DNA from: an uncultured Planctomycetota bacterium | GTDB taxonomy: Bacteria > Planctomycetota > Planctomycetia > Isosphaerales > Isosphaeraceae | Direction of reading: 5' to 3' | Assembly: GCA_963823665.1 (NCBI GenBank) | Contig: CAWGMQ010000006.1 | Coordinates: 1,280,001-1,344,000 of the forward strand | DNA length: 64,000 nt | In this document: positions 10,701-20,085 of the stretch, one piece after another | Position numbering within the stretch: position 1 is the first letter of the stretch | Layout of the letters: every line of letters starts with the position of its first letter | The notes under the pieces: model-generated | The model's input: only the letters and a program-made list of their open reading frames with translations | What the model was told of the DNA's origin: nothing | Databases searched by the model: none | Translations under genes and position numbers: made by a program

Positions 10701-12248
10701 GTGAATGAAGCGACAGAAGGAACGAGCGAGTCTGGCGCAGGGCGCGGTCTCAATCCGCGGTGGGAGTGGCCTGCGGATGAAATCAGGCGCGTTGGGTATC
10801 GCGTGGTGGACATGATTGCGGAGCATCTGTCGGCGTTGCCCGCGGAGCCCGTCTTTCGACCGGTGCCAGCGGAGCTTGCGGCTCAGTGGCTGGGTTCGGA
10901 GCCGCCGGAATCGGGTGCGGAAGTGGACGACGTGCTGGACGCGTTTGCCCGCGACATCGAGCCGTTTCCGTTCGGGAACGGGCATCCACGTTTTTATGGG
11001 TGGGTGAACTCGCCGCCGGTGGTCCTGAGTGTTTTCGCCGAGGCTCTTGCGGCGGCGATGAACCCGAGCTGCGCGGGGGGGAATCACGCCGCTGTATATG
11101 TAGAACGCGCGGTGGTGAACTGGTTCAAGCAGATCGTGGGATTTCCGCCACAGAGCATGGGGCTGCTCGTGAGTGGCGGATCGATGGCTGCGCTCACGGC
11201 GCTGGCGGTCGCGCGGCAGGTGAAATGCGGATTTGATGTGAGGGCGCGAGGCGTACAAGGAGCTCCGGCCAAGATGACTTTTTACCGGAGCGGCGAGGGG
11301 CATGGGTGCCATCAGAAGGCGATTGAGCTGCTCGGGATCGGGCACGAGAACTTTCGTATCGTGGAGCATGATCGCGCGCTGCGCATGAAGCCCGCGGCGC
11401 TTGGGGCTGGGATTGCCGCTGATCGGCAGCAGGGTAATGTTCCCGTTGCCGTAATCGCCAGTGCGGGCGCCGTGAATACCGGGGCGATCGATCCTCTGGA
11501 AGCCATTGCGGATGTGTGCGCGGAGAACAACGTGTGGCTGCATGTCGACGGGGCCTATGGGGCACCGGCCGTGCTGTCGCAGTCGTATGGCGCTCAGCTT
11601 GGGTCGCTTTCACGGGCGGACAGTCTGGCGCTCGATCCGCACAAGTGGTTGTATGTGCCGGTGGAGGCGGGGTTGGTGCTGGTGCGGGATGCGGAGGCGA
11701 TGCGCAGCACGTTCAGCCTGGTTCCTCCTTATCTCAGGACGGACGGGAAACTCGAAGGCGTGGGGGGACTGCCGTGGTTCAGCGAATTTGGGTTTCAGCA
11801 GACTCGCGGGTTTCGTGCGCTCAAGGTGTGGATGGCGTTACGCTATCATGGGCTGGCGGGATATCGCGCTTCGATTGAGCGGGACATCTCGTACGCACAG
11901 AAGCTGGCGGGGCGGCTGCGGGAATCGGGTGAGTTCGAGGTTTTTGAGCCGCAGAGTCTCTCGATCGTGTGTTTCCGGTTTGCTCCGCGTGAGCTTCGCC
12001 AGGAGGCTGAGATCGATCAGATGAACAAAGCGGTGCTGGAAGAAATTCAGCTTGGCGGGCAGATATTTCTCTCGAGCACAATGATTGATGGGAGGTTCTG
12101 GCTGCGAGCGTGTATCATCAACCATCGGGCTCAGCTCGAAGACCTGGAGACGCTCGTTGATGTTGTGACGTGCAGCGGGCGGGCGGCTCGAAGGCGAATG
12201 GGTGAAGCCGCGGGTGGGAGTGGCGCTGGCGGGAAAATGAAGAGCTGA
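10701..12248 (+). CDS. Group II PLP-dependent (aromatic-L-amino-acid-type) decarboxylase
   Basis: HPRFYGWV, SGGSMA, WLHVDGAYG, DSLALDPHKW (PLP lysine), RALKVWM. Confidence 0.92.
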   Translation: MNEATEGTSESGAGRGLNPRWEWPADEIRRVGYRVVDMIAEHLSALPAEPVFRPVPAELAAQWLGSEPPESGAEVDDVLDAFARDIEPFPFGNGHPRFYGWVNSPPVVLSVFAEALAAAMNPSCAGGNHAAVYVERAVVNWFKQIVGFPPQSMGLLVSGGSMAALTALAVARQVKCGFDVRARGVQGAPAKMTFYRSGEGHGCHQKAIELLGIGHENFRIVEHDRALRMKPAALGAGIAADRQQGNVPVAVIASAGAVNTGAIDPLEAIADVCAENNVWLHVDGAYGAPAVLSQSYGAQLGSLSRADSLALDPHKWLYVPVEAGLVLVRDAEAMRSTFSLVPPYLRTDGKLEGVGGLPWFSEFGFQQTRGFRALKVWMALRYHGLAGYRASIERDISYAQKLAGRLRESGEFEVFEPQSLSIVCFRFAPRELRQEAEIDQMNKAVLEEIQLGGQIFLSSTMIDGRFWLRACIINHRAQLEDLETLVDVVTCSGRAARRRMGEAAGGSGAGGKMKS

Positions 12249-12302
12249 ACAAGATTCGGAGCGGAGAGTTTAGCCACGGATCAGACACGGATCGAACACG
12301 GA
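12203..12302 (+). repeat. Dispersed composite repeat, copy a (truncated)
   Basis: ggagagtttagccacggatcagacacggatcgaacacgga, an 11-bp unit x3; homologous to ~13543-13582 and ~17669-17708. Confidence 0.8.
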
Positions 12303-13489: not shown

Positions 13490-13907
13490 TGTGGAAGAGA
13501 GCCGCGCCGGCAGAAAAATGAAGAAATAAACGAGACGAGGATCGGAGAGTTTAGCCACGGATCAAACACGGATCGAACACGGATAATACAAGAATACGTC
13601 AGGGAGTGCGGGGGTCTGGGTCGGCTGCCCCGCCCTGGACTGGATTGGAGGCTTGTCATGCGCGATGCGCGTGAAGATTTAAACAGAAGGTAACGAAGGT
13701 AACAAATAAGAAGATGGGAGCCTGAATGGCGGATCCGGCTGTGCTCCAGGGGACCAAAAAAGGCCCGGACGCAAGATTTGATGTATCGCCGGGACTTTGG
13801 GGGCGAAGAAACGGCCCGGCGCGTGCACCCGCTCGGTCAGGAACAGGCCGAGAATAACTCTTTCGAAAAGTGGGCCCTCGCTCCGCGAGGGAACGTGCCT
13901 TCGCGGA
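13490..13907 (+). repeat. Dispersed composite repeat, copy b (ends in the REP that is the IS1182 target)
   Basis: Tandem cacggat units, then ggcttgtcatgc, aacagaaggtaacgaaggtaac and cctcgctccgcgagggaacgtgccttcgcgga. Aligns by eye with 17605-17836 and 30033-30252. Confidence 0.75.
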
Positions 13908-15559
13908 GAGGCTGTCATCTTTTGGCCGCGTTGCGGTAACTCGGCCGTTGGGCCTAGTCGGCTGTGATTCACCGCTTGGTCGCTCGGTTAGTGCCGCCGA
14001 TTCACGCCAGTTCTCCAATAGCCCAGCCGTTGACGCAAACGCGCTTTCCTATTTTGTCCCTTTTTTGCAAAGTACCGCTCATTCCGCCAGTTTGCCCATC
14101 GCTGGGCGCAGTCTCCCTGCGACAACCAGGTTGTGAGCAATTGCAAACAACAATGCGACGGCGCGGCAACGCGGTTGGCCACGCACGGGCATAAACCAGA
14201 ATCCTCGATTGCGAGCCTGGGCGTTGACCCACTCGGCTGTTTGGCCTCGCAGCCGGTAGATCAGCTTCGCGGCCTCGGTCCCCATTCGGATCCGCCAAGC
14301 GGCAACCGCTTCGCTGTCGCCCTTCTTTGCGGTGTAGGGATCTTCTCCATTTGCCTGTTTCTTTTTCTCGTCTCTGATCGGCCCGTATACGATGCAGCCG
14401 CGTTGGGCCGCCTGATCGATCGAGTCCTTGGTCGTGAAGCCACCGTCAACCAATGCCTCATCCGGAATTCGTTCGTAACGCTCCTCCAACTGGTCGAGCA
14501 TGGGCGGAAGTTCTTCGCCATCGTTCCCTGCGTTGGTCACCTCCACACCCACAATCACACCGCTTTCGGTGTCTGTTGTGAATTGAACGTTATATCCCGG
14601 CCGGAATCCTCCGTCTGGAAACTTCATGATCCTCGCGTCGGGGTCGGTGGTCGAAGCACGCGCTTCCCGCCCCTTGCGGCCGTAGGACTCGTCACGTTCG
14701 CGTTGCAGCTCCTCGCACTGCCGCATCGCTTCTTCGATCCGTTGCTGTCGCTTGTTGGCGGCACGCTCCCGCGCCGCTCGCTGCCGTCGAGTCAGCTCTG
14801 CTGTGTCCTCCTCGGCCAGTTTCTTCAGCGCCTCAACCTGCTCCTTCGCCGCTTTCAGGCACTCCTCCAGGCTACCGCGACGACGAAACGAGCTCTTGCC
14901 CGCGCTGGCACGCACTCTCATTCCGTCCTGAGCGACCCGGTCCATTTTCACCAACCCGGCATGGAGCAGGGTGCCCACGATCTGCGTGAGCAGTTCGTTC
15001 AACTTCTCGCCCCCACAAGCGAGGAAGTGGGACAACATGCTGTGGTTGACGGTTACGCCGCCGCACAGCCACTGGTACGGCAGACTCCCTTGGTTCTTTT
15101 CGCACAGCCGTTCGATTTCACGGGCGCTGCCGACTCCCTTCAATGTGGCGAAAACCCGCAATCCGACCAGCAAGCGCGGGTCGGTGGCATCTCGGCCGAC
15201 ATGTCGCTCGACGGCCTTGATCTCGCCGAGCCAGGCTTTCAGATCGAGCTTGCAGACCGCCGCCCAGACGACCCGGGCCGGATGGTCGGCCTCGAGCAAT
15301 TCATCGAGCGATGCCCAGCGCATCTCGATCTGGTCGCGTACGGGACACCGCAGCCGCGGCTTGCCAGTTGGCATCGACTGGGCAGCCTGGGCGGGAGAGG
15401 GCTGATCGGGCAAGTCTTCTGGGCTAAAGAGAGGAAGTGTCATGACGCTCGTCCTGCAACACCGGGGCTGCGTGGGGCTCATGCGGCGGACTACATGCAT
15501 GGTATTAGAACGTGAACACTATACAAAATCAACCCCAACGCCGAAAAAATCACAGCCTC
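13908..15559 (-). mobile_element. IS1182-family insertion sequence, copy 1
   Basis: Terminal IRs gaggctgtcatcttttgg / ccgaaaaaatcacagcctc; flanked by gga/gga (cggag if the IRs are read one base shorter). Second copy at 30253-31904. Confidence 0.9.
14079..15443 (-). CDS. IS1182-family DDE transposase
   Basis: LDELLEADHPARVV, GVGSAREIERLC, AQDGMRVRASAG, STTDPDARIMK, GYNVQ, LVDGGF, RGQTAEWVNA. Confidence 0.9.
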   Translation of the reverse strand: MTLPLFSPEDLPDQPSPAQAAQSMPTGKPRLRCPVRDQIEMRWASLDELLEADHPARVVWAAVCKLDLKAWLGEIKAVERHVGRDATDPRLLVGLRVFATLKGVGSAREIERLCEKNQGSLPYQWLCGGVTVNHSMLSHFLACGGEKLNELLTQIVGTLLHAGLVKMDRVAQDGMRVRASAGKSSFRRRGSLEECLKAAKEQVEALKKLAEEDTAELTRRQRAARERAANKRQQRIEEAMRQCEELQRERDESYGRKGREARASTTDPDARIMKFPDGGFRPGYNVQFTTDTESGVIVGVEVTNAGNDGEELPPMLDQLEERYERIPDEALVDGGFTTKDSIDQAAQRGCIVYGPIRDEKKKQANGEDPYTAKKGDSEAVAAWRIRMGTEAAKLIYRLRGQTAEWVNAQARNRGFWFMPVRGQPRCRAVALLFAIAHNLVVAGRLRPAMGKLAE

Positions 15560-15653
15560 GGAGCGAAGGCCGACAATTGTCTTCGGCGGGCGACTCTAGG
15601 TTCCTGGTATGATCTGAGTCGACAAGCGTCTCCAACGTGGGAGAGTGGCGTCC

Positions 15654-16448
15654 ATGCCGGCTAGCCCCGTCGCACGTCCGTGGCGAAGATTCCTGCGATT
15701 CAGCATGCGGGGGTTGATCATCCTGGTGCTGATGATCGGTGCTTGGCTTGGCTGGCTCGTCCGAAGCGTTCGTATCCAGCGTGAGGCAGTTGCGGCGATC
15801 GCGAGAGCCGGTGGGGTCAAATATGACTGGGGATGGACATCCGCGGATTATGATCCAGGAGTAAAACCGTTGAAGCGAGGAAACCTCGCCGATCGCATTG
15901 GAGTCGACTATTTCGCTCACGTTACCGATGTCAGACTCTTCTGGTCGTCACAGGCAATCAATGAAGCGGTTGTGCAACTCGGGCGTCTTAACCGGGTCGA
16001 GCGAGTGATTATTCATCAGTTTCCCGTGACCGACGCCTGGGTGGCTCAGCTCAAGGGATTGACCAGCGTCTCGGAACTCGCCCTCGACGCCGTTCAATGC
16101 ACCGACGCCGGGCTGGCGCAACTGAGTGGGGTGACCAACCTATCGAAACTTGATCTCACTGGTACTGAGGTCACCGACGCCGGGCTGGCGGAACTGCAAC
16201 GGCTGACCAAACTCTCGGAACTTGTCCTGATGGGCACTCGGGTCACGGACGCTGGGCTGGTGCATCTGAAGGGTCTGAGGAACCTCACGAAACTCGACGT
16301 CAGCGCCACTCGGGTTTCCGACGCCGGGCTGAGGCAACTTCATGGGCTCACCAACCTTTCGGAACTCACCCTGTACAGCACTCTGGTCACCCGCAGGGGG
16401 GTGAAAGAGATCAAGCGGGCTTTGCCGAGCCTCACGATCAATTACTGA
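15654..16448 (+). CDS. Membrane-anchored leucine-rich-repeat protein (paralogue 1, intact)
   Basis: RPWRRFLRFSMRG + TM, then 24-aa repeats of the form LxxLTxLxxLxLxxTxVTDAGLxx. Confidence 0.88.
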   Translation: MPASPVARPWRRFLRFSMRGLIILVLMIGAWLGWLVRSVRIQREAVAAIARAGGVKYDWGWTSADYDPGVKPLKRGNLADRIGVDYFAHVTDVRLFWSSQAINEAVVQLGRLNRVERVIIHQFPVTDAWVAQLKGLTSVSELALDAVQCTDAGLAQLSGVTNLSKLDLTGTEVTDAGLAELQRLTKLSELVLMGTRVTDAGLVHLKGLRNLTKLDVSATRVSDAGLRQLHGLTNLSELTLYSTLVTRRGVKEIKRALPSLTINY

Positions 16449-16655
16449 TTCTGTTGCCTGTGCGATCGACCGCAACTCGACAGAGCGGCATTCTGAATGA
16501 TGTGAAGCAGAGGACGATCGGACGACAGTGTCGTGGGTGGTTTCTCCGATCCGTGTTTACGGATGACCTCTACATTGCTAGGATTCCCGACAAATCCCTC
16601 GGTGAGCCCGATCCTTCGGGCCGGCAAAACGGAGTGTTGGTACGGAGGAATTTGC

Positions 16656-17138
16656 ATGTCCAGAAGAACACGTGCATTTGGAGCCGTGATCATCCTGTCC
16701 TACGTCTCGCCCGTCCATCTCGCTGCTCATGATAAAGTCGGGACGGATGGACTCATCTCCAGAGTCGGCACGTATCGACTCTATCATGGGGAACTGGCGC
16801 TGAGGATCTACGAGGACAAGGGCAAGCTGAACTACGAGATCGGCAGAACCAACATGTTCTGGTGCGGGCCTGCGGAGCCCTTCATCGAAAAAGGAGCTGG
16901 GTGGTTCGCATTGGTAGAGTCACCCAAGGCGAGAGCGCCCAGAGCGATCTGGATCTTCGACGGGCGTGATCGTCTCGTCCAGATCGCATACGACCCCATC
17001 GGGAGTCGAGACGATTACTGGGGGGCGATTGAGTATGACTCGGATTCCCGTCCCTCGATTGTCACCAACGCTCCCAAGGCGGTTCGGGACCGGCTGCCGG
17101 AGTCGTTCAAGAAGAAGTTCAAGGGGAAGTCCCAGTAG
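16656..17138 (+). CDS. Hypothetical secreted protein
   Basis: ATG at 16656 after ggagg; signal-peptide-like N-terminus; within ORF 16533..17138. Confidence 0.6.
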   Translation: MSRRTRAFGAVIILSYVSPVHLAAHDKVGTDGLISRVGTYRLYHGELALRIYEDKGKLNYEIGRTNMFWCGPAEPFIEKGAGWFALVESPKARAPRAIWIFDGRDRLVQIAYDPIGSRDDYWGAIEYDSDSRPSIVTNAPKAVRDRLPESFKKKFKGKSQ

Positions 17139-17210
17139 GTAAACGAAGCTCCCTCCTGGCTTCCGATGCGGCCAGGGCGCGACACCTCAATGAGAATCGA
17201 GACTTCGCGC

Positions 17211-17477
17211 ATGCCCATTTACGGCTACAAGCGGGCGGTTGCAAACGAGGAATTCGGCTTGCTCGACCTGCGTGAGATCAGCTTCGACCTCCAGGCTGAC
17301 GATCTCCGACGCGTCTCCCGTTTCCTCGAAAGCTGCGCCGCAGAGATTGAATCGGGGCGCTGGCGGAGTAGCCACGTCCATCTGAGTTCGCTTGATCCGT
17401 CGTGGAGAGGCGGCCACCCGGACACGGACGTGATTGTGCTGAACCCCGATCCTGAACCTCCTGTCCCCTGCGAATAA
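17211..17477 (+). CDS. Small hypothetical protein, possibly an Imm32-like immunity protein
   Basis: GLLDLREISF...DLRRVSRFLESCAAEIE...HVHL pattern recalled from immunity-like small proteins. Start uncertain. Confidence 0.5.
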   Translation: MPIYGYKRAVANEEFGLLDLREISFDLQADDLRRVSRFLESCAAEIESGRWRSSHVHLSSLDPSWRGGHPDTDVIVLNPDPEPPVPCE

Positions 17478-17604: not shown

Positions 17605-17836
17605 AATTGGGGCCGCGGATGGGAGCCACGGCGGCGGGAAAAAGAAGAATTGGAGTAGAACAGGAGCGGAGATTTTAGCCACGGATCAAACACGGATCGA
17701 ACACGGATAATACAAGAATGCTTCAAGGAGTGAGTGGGTTTGGGTCAGATGCCCTGCTCTGGACTGGGGGCTTGTCATGCCAGGTGCTCCACAAGATTTG
17801 AACAGAAGAAAACGAAGATAACGAAGTAGAGTCTTC
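17605..17836 (+). repeat. Dispersed composite repeat, copy c
   Basis: ttagccacggatcaaacacggatcgaacacggataatacaagaat is identical to copy b; followed by aacagaagaaaacgaagataacgaag. Confidence 0.8.
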
Positions 17837-19549
17837 GTCCGTAAGATCTCTGCGCCGTGCGCGTCTTTTCAATGGATTATGCTGCTCTGCCAACGGCCTT
17901 TGGTATTCCATGATAGTAAAGTTGAACCGCCGCTCCCAACAGTTGGTGGCCTTTCGCGGTAACGAGCCAGCGACGGCTGCGCGGCACCTTTGCGATTAAT
18001 CCTCGTACGTGTAATCGCTTCAACATGCGACCGACCGCGTGGCTTTGACGACGCTGTTCGCCGACGTCTTTGTTGGGTACGTAGAACGCATCCCTGACAT
18101 CCGCGTTGCGAAAACCGCGGAGCACATGGTCCCCATCGAGTACCGCTTGGAAGAACCGCACGTCGGCGGAGGTGGCGGGGTTGAACCCAGCATGACTGCG
18201 GCCAAAGACAATCGCCGGCTCGGTCAATTCCTTAAGCTGGCTGTACGCCGGCGCCGGATCTTCGACCGTGGACAGAGCATCCAGGTATCGCTGATTGGCA
18301 ACCAGTGACACCTCACGGTAACGATAAAGGTTGATGACACCTTTGTTCATCGGGCACCACACCATCCGCGGACGCCCTGCACGCGTCCGTAACCGGCGCA
18401 CCCGAAATTCACGCGGATCGTTGATCACGGTCTCGATCCGCAGCATCAAGCCGAACTTATCGTACATCTTGAGCCAGTTGTTCTTCATCCGGTGTTTGAC
18501 GCGGGCACCGGGCCATCGTCCTTTCTGGCAACTCGTGAGCACCTCCCCATCGAACAGGGGATGGAATCGACGTCCCAGGAAACTCAGGATGTCTTTCGCT
18601 GAGAAGTTCACCGCGGCATGATCCAGTAGCCGCGGATAGAGACCAGCCAGCGCCGCGCGGCTGGTGAAGATAACATCGGTCGCGAACTCGGCTTGATCGA
18701 TGACCCAGTAATAACTGAGGCAGCGAAACCACCCTTCTTTTACCAATGGATTGACCCGCCGCGCTAGACGATCGAGGATCTTGACCCATTCGAGCTTGGT
18801 GAACGAGTCAGCCATCCTTTGAGCAACTCGGGGATTGTCCAAAGCGGTGAATGCGTTGTCTTGCTGTTCAAATCCCATCCGTCGCTTGGACATCTGGCGG
18901 GCCAACCACGAGTGGCCGTTGACATAAATCTGGATGGTAAACGGGAACCAGGTCGCCAGACGAATATGAATCAGATCTAACTGGGGATCGAGGAAGTAGA
19001 AGTACAAGACGCGCTGTTGTCGACGTGCGTTGACCAGGCTGGGTCGACCTTTGCCGTACTTGAGTTTGAAACTTGGACAGCACTCCATGCAGCAGAGGAT
19101 ACATATCAAACCTTCGCCAATAGGTCGTTTTCGGAGGAATTCGTGGGCGATGGCTTCCTTGCGATGAGCCCCTTGAAGGAACTGGTATTCGGCGCCGTAT
19201 CGCTGGGCAAGTCGCTTGGCGTGGCCGATCAAGATCTCGGACTGTTTCTCGGCAAAGGCCATGAAGTCACACCGGCGGATCTTAAGAATACGGTCGACGA
19301 AGGCTTCGAGCGCTGGTCCATTGCTGATGGGCAGATAGCCCTTATAGATCACCCGGTCGAAGCACGCGAGCACGGCGACGACTAGCTTGGTAAACTTGAC
19401 GACGAAGCGCGACAGCGTCTTCATGGCGTTCTCCTCCGAAGTGGCTGTTCTTGACAAACCCATTTTGGAGGCAGAACGCCGTTCTTGCCCAAGCTTTTTC
19501 AAGCGGATCGCGAAAAAGGGCAGCGCGAGGTTCTCAGAATCTGCGGAAC
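17837..19549 (-). mobile_element. Unclassified IS-like element (single ORF, imperfect IRs, 5-bp direct repeat)
   Basis: tcttc at 17832-17836 and 19550-19554. Left end gtccgtaagatctctg vs right-end reverse complement gttccgcagattctg. One ORF fills about 90% of the element. Confidence 0.6.
17877..19424 (-). CDS. Putative transposase-like protein with Rep_trans-like motifs and a C-terminal winged helix
   Basis: ATG at 19424 with a ggaggag RBS; 515 aa. Motifs CFDRVIYKGYL, DQAEFATD, KMYDK..LRIETVIN, GFRN...LKRLHVRGLIAKVPRSRRWLVT. Confidence 0.65.
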   Translation of the reverse strand: MKTLSRFVVKFTKLVVAVLACFDRVIYKGYLPISNGPALEAFVDRILKIRRCDFMAFAEKQSEILIGHAKRLAQRYGAEYQFLQGAHRKEAIAHEFLRKRPIGEGLICILCCMECCPSFKLKYGKGRPSLVNARRQQRVLYFYFLDPQLDLIHIRLATWFPFTIQIYVNGHSWLARQMSKRRMGFEQQDNAFTALDNPRVAQRMADSFTKLEWVKILDRLARRVNPLVKEGWFRCLSYYWVIDQAEFATDVIFTSRAALAGLYPRLLDHAAVNFSAKDILSFLGRRFHPLFDGEVLTSCQKGRWPGARVKHRMKNNWLKMYDKFGLMLRIETVINDPREFRVRRLRTRAGRPRMVWCPMNKGVINLYRYREVSLVANQRYLDALSTVEDPAPAYSQLKELTEPAIVFGRSHAGFNPATSADVRFFQAVLDGDHVLRGFRNADVRDAFYVPNKDVGEQRRQSHAVGRMLKRLHVRGLIAKVPRSRRWLVTAKGHQLLGAAVQLYYHGIPKAVGRAA

Positions 19550-19800
19550 TCTTCTCTGCCGGCAACAGAGAGAGGCTAGCAGGGGTCCAGGGGGCGGCAA
19601 TGAGCCCCTGGTCGCCGCATGGATGCGGCGAAATCTTGCAAGGATGCTTACCAACAGCGAGAGATATCCGCTACCGACATGTTCGAATGAAAGAGTCCTT
19701 CTGGTTTGCGGCTCCGCCGCGTTAGGAGATAAGAGTCTGAACGGCCGATTGGGCTGCGCTCTGCGCTGGCGCGACTTGCCTGCTCTGCGAACACGGGCCA

Positions 19801-20085
19801 GTGCATCTCAGCCGACTGACCACGCTCTCTACACTCGAACTCGGTGATACTCAGGTCAGCGATGCCGGGCTGGCGCATTTGAGAGGGTTAACCAACTTGA
19901 TCTGCCTCATCCTCGACAGCACGCACGTCAGCGATACCGGGCTCGCAAATCTGAAGGGGATGACCGAACTTGTTGTCCTTTACTACTCAGGTCACCGATG
20001 CTGGATTGGTGCATCTGAAGGGTCTGACCAAACTCTCTAGCCTTTATCTCAGCAACACTCAGGTCACCAACGCCGGAATGGTGGC
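19801..20085 (+). pseudogene. LRR paralogue remnant (paralogue 2)
   Basis: About four TQVSDAGLAHLRGLTNL-type repeats, frameshifted near 19985; no N-terminus. Confidence 0.8.

Follow-up and report, generated by a model that had tools for sequence, protein, structure and literature searches.

An apparently undescribed class of single-gene insertion sequences with a predicted Rep_trans-type nuclease

Introduction

Can an insertion sequence be moved by a nuclease of the type that initiates rolling-circle replication? The question is raised by a locus in 64,000 nucleotides of DNA from an uncultured Planctomycetota bacterium of the Isosphaeraceae (GCA_963823665.1, contig CAWGMQ010000006.1, positions 1,280,001 to 1,344,000; this whole stretch is called the window here). 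An earlier note, written from the letters of the window, described a 1713-bp unit at 17832-19554 filled by a single open reading frame (ORF) of 515 amino acids (aa). The unit posed a paradox: its protein seemed to carry motifs of the Rep_trans initiators, yet it appeared to be framed by imperfect inverted repeats (IRs) and a 5-bp target duplication. In two reviews, single-strand transposition (IS91/ISCR, IS200/IS605, Helitrons and Replitrons) is assigned to HUH enzymes, and Rep_trans proteins are assigned only to plasmid and phage replication and to the transfer of integrative and conjugative elements (PMC5714925, PMC10288648).

We find that the ORF, whose product is called P0001 here, is the only gene of a mobile element. 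The ends of this element are asymmetric, its junction is unique and its target is not duplicated; its relatives have spread in multiple copies, together with mini-elements that keep both ends. Judged from its sequence, the copy in the window is an intact, single-gene insertion sequence of 1,896 bp, a real member of a large class that has apparently gone undescribed so far. Its movement probably involves single-strand phosphotyrosine transfer by a Rep_trans-type enzyme, through either rolling-circle copying or peel-and-paste excision.

Results

Relatives define the ends of the element

Homologues of P0001 made up 3,221 of 8,000 scored candidates, with 6,043 clusters at 50% identity. Most of the listed homologues sit on contigs of 1.7-2.5 kb, as expected of repeats that break assemblies. 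Relatives are present in 15 of 61 related genomes, in 12 of 201 genomes of the phylum and on 16 plasmid records from Rhodococcus, Burkholderiales and mycobacteria; none was found among the 50,697 phage records searched. Annotation calls the family members "hypothetical" or "ArsR family regulator". The 86 full-length matches represent 75 distinct loci, 58 of them in 10 multi-copy families and 17 singletons. Read on the ORF strand, both ends are fixed within each family. The left end opens with a YYAR-type tetramer, after which a GC-rich hairpin and a CAACC-type tail come in most cases; the right end lies downstream of the gene. Terminal IRs are absent, and the end sequences vary along with the protein family.

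The ends were examined at 122 loci from genomes and metagenomes. Of these, 64, possibly with a few duplicates, share 68% identity or more with P0001 and are termed close relatives. Their left tetramer is CTAA in 48 of 51 cases. A C stands before it in 49 of 51, and the remaining two cases are head-to-tail junctions. Counted from the start codon, the left end lies at 95-99 nt in 43 of the 51 and at 228-711 nt in the remaining 8, and the right end lies 50-55 nt from the end of the ORF in all 57. The tetramer after the right end is CTAA, CTAC, CTAG, CTAT or GTAA (42, 5, 5, 4 and 1 cases), and the left and right tetramers are unlike in 11 of 44. A complete chromosome, G156, carries 23 near-identical copies, 22 of 1,700 bp and one interrupted, as well as at least 11 mini-elements of ~175 bp with both ends. 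All 23 copies start with CTAG, 22 are preceded by C, and all have an ACRNA-type target with A at +1 and +5.

Empty alleles, searched for three flanks, show a single precise junction, C/NTAN (the slash marks the point of insertion), with no overlap and no duplication. The empty site L199, compared with the filled site L035, contains just one CTAA. At L131, the left tetramer is CTAG and the right one TTAG, and the empty counterparts L190 and L197 have TTAG; L123 follows the same logic against L182 and L183, and L118 and L122 form a fourth pair. We take these targets to be IS21, IS3, IS66 and RHS sequences. In addition, several junctions in G156 restore empty repeats seen elsewhere in the same chromosome. 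The filled and empty pairs show that the left tetramer is part of the element, whereas the right one is target DNA. A 4-bp CTAA duplication was therefore rejected: the left tetramer travels with the element and the right tetramer equals the empty site. The same pairs disfavour a junction at CT/AA, in the style of a Rep_trans nick, and a shared recombination core.

The element in the window follows this pattern, beginning with CTAA and a hairpin and sitting at C/CTAN. Its own genome (G000, 16.5 Mb) yielded no second full copy, and P0001 has a single protein match there. Its leader, from the left end to the start codon, measures 301 nt and contains a module of ~90 bp (~19553-19640) that recurs in the leader of one relative (L213) and has matches in many soil contigs. 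One soil contig lacks the additional leader sequence and joins 19488 to 19706, with 13 other letters between. A longer ORF of 562 aa from a TTG start was considered and rejected, as close homologues are 515 aa long and align from residue 1. By folding energy, the left-end hairpin does not stand out significantly (z -0.9 to -1.5), and its support comes from its conservation and from stem changes among relatives. Perfect stems occur in 38 of 49 more distant loci, a count made with a script that selects for perfect stems. Elsewhere (G033:C3:849229-855133), the left-end hairpin motif occurs in tandem 34-bp repeats, and L369 has a similar triple.

These results change the picture given by the earlier note. 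The tcttc pentamers that it had read as a target duplication do exist, at 17832-17836 and 19550-19554, but when two 30-nt zones 1.7 kb apart were drawn at random from the window 5,000 times, 60% of the draws had a 5-mer in common. The second pentamer lies inside a 5' extension that most relatives lack, and with it go the 1713-bp boundaries. The imperfect IRs fared no better: of 93 inverted pairs, none of the 25 longest connects the two ends of the unit, and the conserved termini are asymmetric. The paradox disappears because its IRs, duplication and boundaries are gone. Collecting homologues with their flanks, as the note had advised, thus yielded conserved ends and empty sites and no duplications. 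The dispersed repeat does adjoin the element; the insertion, however, is not at its end, since a paralogous repeat near 13660-13760 reads through the insertion site and places the element inside the repeat.

A predicted TBP-like fold with a candidate Rep_trans active site

AlphaFold2 models of P0001 are confident (pLDDT 95.0 for the full length and 95.9 for residues 1-392). They predict an N-terminal domain with a TBP-like crescent β-sheet (residues ~1-390) and a MarR-like winged helix (~390-515; Z up to 9.1), in agreement with the C-terminal winged helix proposed earlier. In a Foldseek search with the N-domain, the six best PDB chains were all RepSTK1 or RepDE (E 1.5-2.5e-3, TM about 0.3). 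Against 48,161 representative chains, the top seven were five TBP entries, RepDE and RepSTK1 (Z 6.7-8.6); RepDE gave Z 7.2 with a root-mean-square deviation of 5.4 over 182 aligned residues, and RepSTK1 Z 6.7 with 4.8 over 190. RepDE itself scores Z 5.4 to TBP (PMC4797284). Among its viral matches are TBP-like and inovirus proteins. No RNase H/DDE or HUH chain appears among the top listed matches of the N-domain. Likewise, no DDE profile of Pfam or NCBIfam matches P0001, the neighbouring IS1182 gene being matched as a control, and no HUH motif is conserved in the family, in line with the lack of DDE and HUH signatures remarked on before. P0001 matches no NCBIfam family, the Atlas search gave no named family, and PHROGs gave one weak regulator match (E 0.27).

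The active site of RepD consists of D46, R140-x-D142-x-A-x-D146, R189-x-Y191-x-K193 and R212-x-E214 (PMC4797284). The motifs DQAEFATD, KMYDK and LRIETVIN, which the earlier note had compared with those of Rep_trans, are present in the order claimed. By spacing and order, D23, E246, Y321 and E331 of P0001 are predicted to match RepD D46, D142, Y191 and E214. Conservation was counted over 111 sequences, down to ~29% identity (100 sequences for D23), and is given in Table 1. Y321 lies on a β-strand of the model (316-323), as do all candidate motif residues on theirs. The structural alignments start at residue 16 against 39 (4cwc) and 15 against 1 (4cij); in this register, an ungapped first strand would bring D23 onto the first metal ligand. 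A second invariant cluster lies between residues 114 and 190 (E114, Y141, Y143, R155, W159, P161, N169 and N190), and the Rep_trans motifs do not account for it.

The right end covaries with the target

Target preference at +1/+2 differs by family (CT, TT, AC, RC or AT), and the bases at -4/-5 of the right end change along with it. Assuming a 3-nt loop, Watson-Crick complementarity between the two is 0.76 over 11 families and 0.385 for shuffled family-target pairs (p=1e-4); with loops of 3 or 4 allowed, the values are 0.93 and 0.59. Collapsing the families to 7 target types gives p=0.003, and other registers scored 0.09-0.47. The element in the window fits the register, with A, G at -5/-4 facing C, T in the target. 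This covariation suggests that the target is chosen by base-pairing with the right end of the element, a form of DNA-guided targeting.

Orientation of the copies

In G156, where the skew was taken from 40 stretches of 20 kb, 21 of 23 copies have their ORF strand on the G-rich strand, and the mini-elements gave 12 of 17. The corresponding share is 57% for long ORFs and 47-60% for short target motifs. Empty target repeats, which are longer, lie on the G-rich strand in 24 of 29 cases. We therefore discarded the replichore bias as a sign of lagging-strand targeting, as it is confounded by the orientation of the target repeats. The same test in G033 was uninformative owing to a flat skew. The preferred targets of the G156 family are CACRRA repeats, themselves strand-biased (24/29) and related to the dispersed purine-rich repeats (CACGGAT-type units) of the window.

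Features of the window and side observations

The coordinates are collected in Table 1. As the earlier note had seen, a remnant of a leucine-rich repeat (LRR) gene adjoins the element.

Table 1. Parts of the insertion sequence, predicted residues of P0001 and neighbouring features in the window
Feature	Positions	Strand	Basis or remark
Complete insertion sequence	17830..19725	-	ends placed by the termini conserved among relatives and by empty-site logic
P0001, 515-aa transposase gene, intact	17877..19424	-	ORF
Left end: CTAA tetramer, GC hairpin of 5 bp (19708-19720), AAC-type tail	19706..19725	-	conserved across families
Conserved target C directly 5' of the element	19726..19726	-	flanks of relatives
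Lineage-specific 5' extension with second tcttc and ~90-bp module	19520..19705	-	most relatives without it
Right end: subterminal hairpin (17852-17862) and terminal bases, candidate guide A, G at -5/-4	17830..17876	-	
Target tetramer CTAC, host DNA outside the element	17826..17829	-	tetramer variation in relatives and empty-site pairs
Host dispersed repeat, insertion target of the element	17617..17829	+	continues ~15-20 bp past 19725; paralogues at 13493-13706 and elsewhere
D23, predicted metal ligand (RepD D46 / RepSTK1 D9 equivalent)	19356..19358	-	invariant, 100/100
Q244-x-E246-x-A-x-D250, predicted equivalent of RepD R140-x-D142-x-A-x-D146	18675..18695	-	E246 110/111, D250 109/111
K319-x-Y321-x-K323, predicted catalytic tyrosine (RepD R189-x-Y191-x-K193)	18456..18470	-	109, 109 and 106 of 111
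R329-x-E331, predicted equivalent of RepD R212-x-E214	18432..18440	-	both 111/111
Further copies of the dispersed purine-rich repeat	12207..12302, 13493..13706		
IS1182-family transposase gene	14079..15500	-	above NCBIfam cut-off; ordinary DDE element 2.3 kb from the insertion sequence
Intact LRR protein gene	15645..16448	+	many paralogues in the genome
Small gene	16533..17138	+	no Pfam match
Small gene	17166..17477	+	weak Imm32 immunity-protein match below cut-off (E 0.037)
Broken LRR remnant	~19800..20080	+	same type as the intact LRR gene

Non-coding units of ~110-330 bp with both element ends also occur in the window's genome (L137, L141, L142, L143 and L145, on contigs C4, C7 and C10); their genome-wide counts, from pattern and BLAST searches, are lower bounds. 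Several of them enclose a palindromic repeat, matched 67 times by BLAST in the genome, which we take to be similar to repetitive extragenic palindromes (REP-like). These units may link P0001-type enzymes to the spread of REP-like repeats. Another genome, G001, holds a family of 13 copies (L097-L107), mostly inserted at a TAYAC/NTAY site, in what are presumably RHS/YD-repeat genes. In the G156 chromosome (C1), there are three full DnaA matches, one of which adjoins a mini-element near 2,345,450.

Discussion

Our preferred reading, to which we give a probability of about one half, is that the element moves as a single strand by rolling-circle copy-out, driven by a predicted Rep_trans-type (TBP-fold, non-HUH) tyrosine nickase. 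Y321 would nick the DNA with the help of a metal held by D23, E246 and E331, and would stay linked to the 5' end. The left end, with its CTAA and hairpin, would act like the nick origin of a plasmid. Host replication would then displace one strand, and a second cut at the right end would close a single-stranded circle. The target would receive the circle directly 3' of a C, while the end bases -4/-5 pair with target bases +1/+2 across a loop of 3-4 nt. The active strand is slightly more likely to be the ORF-sense strand, which is favoured because of the CTAA reading; the other strand is favoured because of the formal match to IS91, in which the bottom strand is active (PMC13181058).

Several observations weigh against rolling-circle copy-out by such an enzyme. 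Relative to CT'AA, the Rep_trans nick, the junction is shifted by 2 nt in the 5' direction. The structural scores are modest (E ~1.5e-3, TM ~0.3, Z ~7), and TBP outranks the Rep proteins. At the sequence level, no Pfam family, PF02486 included, matches P0001 at E<=1, none of 96 members matches PF02486 at E<=0.05, and a PDB sequence search matched the winged helix and no Rep protein. P0001 has Q244 in the place of R140, motif II (T/SxY/ExG) is not evident in the conserved columns, and Y141 and Y143 are as invariant as Y321. As for the guide, its register was picked before the test after having been noticed, the families are related, and the boundaries of c1, c2, c23, c24 and G085 follow the model and not empty sites. 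Termination in IS91-type transposition often fails, and one-ended copies number 0 of 23 in G156. The circle search suggested in the earlier note gave no end-to-end joint in the contigs of four soil runs, and no free circle was observed. Head-to-tail junctions of the ends do exist (L033, L034, L230 and L251) and speak for the copy-out route. They do not prove circles, because the left end recreates C/CTAA, so that insertion into the left end of another copy explains them too. Two pairs with a common upstream flank (L134/L135 and L122/L085) could be traces of one-ended transposition, but insertion beside other repeated elements would account for them as well.

Some of these points fit an alternative in which the same Rep_trans-type tyrosine enzyme works by an IS200/IS605-like peel-and-paste route: the element leaves the lagging-strand template as a single strand, the gap in the donor is sealed, and the circle enters a guide-paired single-stranded target. 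We regard this as possible. The lack of one-ended copies and the G-rich ORF strand in G156 speak for it, as does the guide-like pairing of end and target, which parallels IS608 (PMC3333891). However, the orientation bias is confounded, the skew of G033 is flat, and the nearest structural relatives of the enzyme are replication initiators. It is also conceivable, if improbable, that the TBP-like fold is real and the chemistry different, for example a hydrolytic or double-strand cut-and-paste reaction by the acidic triad, or one with another nucleophile such as Y141 or Y143. The modest structural scores, the extra invariant residues of the N-lobe (E114, Y141, Y143, R155, N169 and N190) and the junction shifted from CT'AA would suit such an enzyme. 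On the other hand, the spacing and order of four Rep_trans motifs are preserved and the tyrosine lies on a strand, and a unique junction without duplication or overlap core fits single-strand transfer.

The remaining alternatives concern the unit as a whole. Another enzyme, such as a REP-associated HUH transposase, might move it with the 515-aa gene as a passenger, given that some two-ended minis in the window's genome hold REP-like palindromes and many copies sit in dispersed repeats. We consider this very unlikely, as the 515-aa gene is the only long ORF family common to the copies, its nuclease-like active site is kept across the 111 sequences, and the ends vary with the protein family. The classical element with IRs and a 5-bp duplication at 17832-19554 is practically dismissed: both pentamers exist, but at the chance rate of 0.60 given above, relatives and empty sites place the ends elsewhere without duplication, and the listed fold matches contain no RNase H/DDE structure. 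The identification of an IS-like element with a Rep_trans-fold candidate tyrosine nuclease, the core of the earlier note, is supported by the fold searches, by motif spacing and conservation, and by multi-copy relatives with fixed ends.

Several known systems resemble the element in part. The Rep_trans initiators (PF02486; RepD of pT181/pC221 type, RepDE 4cwc/4cwe and RepSTK1 4cij) and the MOBT relaxases share the predicted TBP-like sheet. They also share the D...D/E...Y...E order and spacing, the strand-borne tyrosine and CTAA at the DNA site, the nick sequence of Rep_trans and MOBT proteins being CT'AA in a hairpin loop (PMC9371924). In contrast, P0001 lacks a sequence-level match, has large insertions and a C-terminal winged helix besides the Q for R140, and is encoded in a chromosomal, multi-copy, two-ended insertion sequence without an integrase. 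The Rep-Arvir initiators of archaea (RepSNJ2, DUF7845) likewise combine a TBP-fold, Rep_trans-related nuclease with a MarR-like winged helix (PMC13107129), a likeness drawn from their description; they replicate viruses and plasmids, and DUF7845 was unmatched in the Pfam search. IME_oriT elements are integrated and encode a Rep_trans-family nuclease as well (PMC7563843), but have a separate recombination module and a relaxase for conjugation, where the present element has one gene.

Among transposons, IS91/ISCR, along with Helitrons and Replitrons, also lack IRs and duplication and have a tetranucleotide target abutting the gene-downstream end, and their upstream end has a tetramer and one palindrome (PMC13181058). 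Their transposases, however, belong to the HUH enzymes and carry the tyrosine in a helix, unlike P0001, in which neither the HUH motif nor the fold was found. IS200/IS605 elements (IS608, ISDra2) and REP-associated tyrosine transposases resemble the element in their hairpin ends, the lack of duplication and an apparent end-encoded guide that pairs with the cleavage site (PMC3333891). They use a small HUH Y1 TnpA in place of a 515-aa non-HUH protein, and the candidate guide here lies 3-4 nt from the right end. DDE insertion sequences differ from the element in the window, which has neither terminal IRs nor a target duplication. We therefore file the element in none of the IS91, IS200/IS605 and Rep_trans families, because the HUH test for the former two and the PF02486 profile test for the latter failed despite the likeness in mechanism and fold. 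Full-text literature searches, whose coverage leaves out most subscription journals, found no paper describing such an element.

Tentatively, we propose a new class of prokaryotic transposons, with thousands of protein clusters in several phyla, that arose from Rep_trans/TBP-fold nickases independently of HUH enzymes and finds its target by right-end pairing; its mini-elements may account for some REP-like repeats. The exact ends, the target rule and the candidate catalytic residues make a transposition assay and a retargeting test straightforward. If the proposal is true, target choice would be reprogrammable by changing two to four end bases. The family is large, recently active, as the near-identical copies in one chromosome attest, and missed by annotation, and it would be an independent route to transposition, taken from the other rolling-circle nuclease fold.

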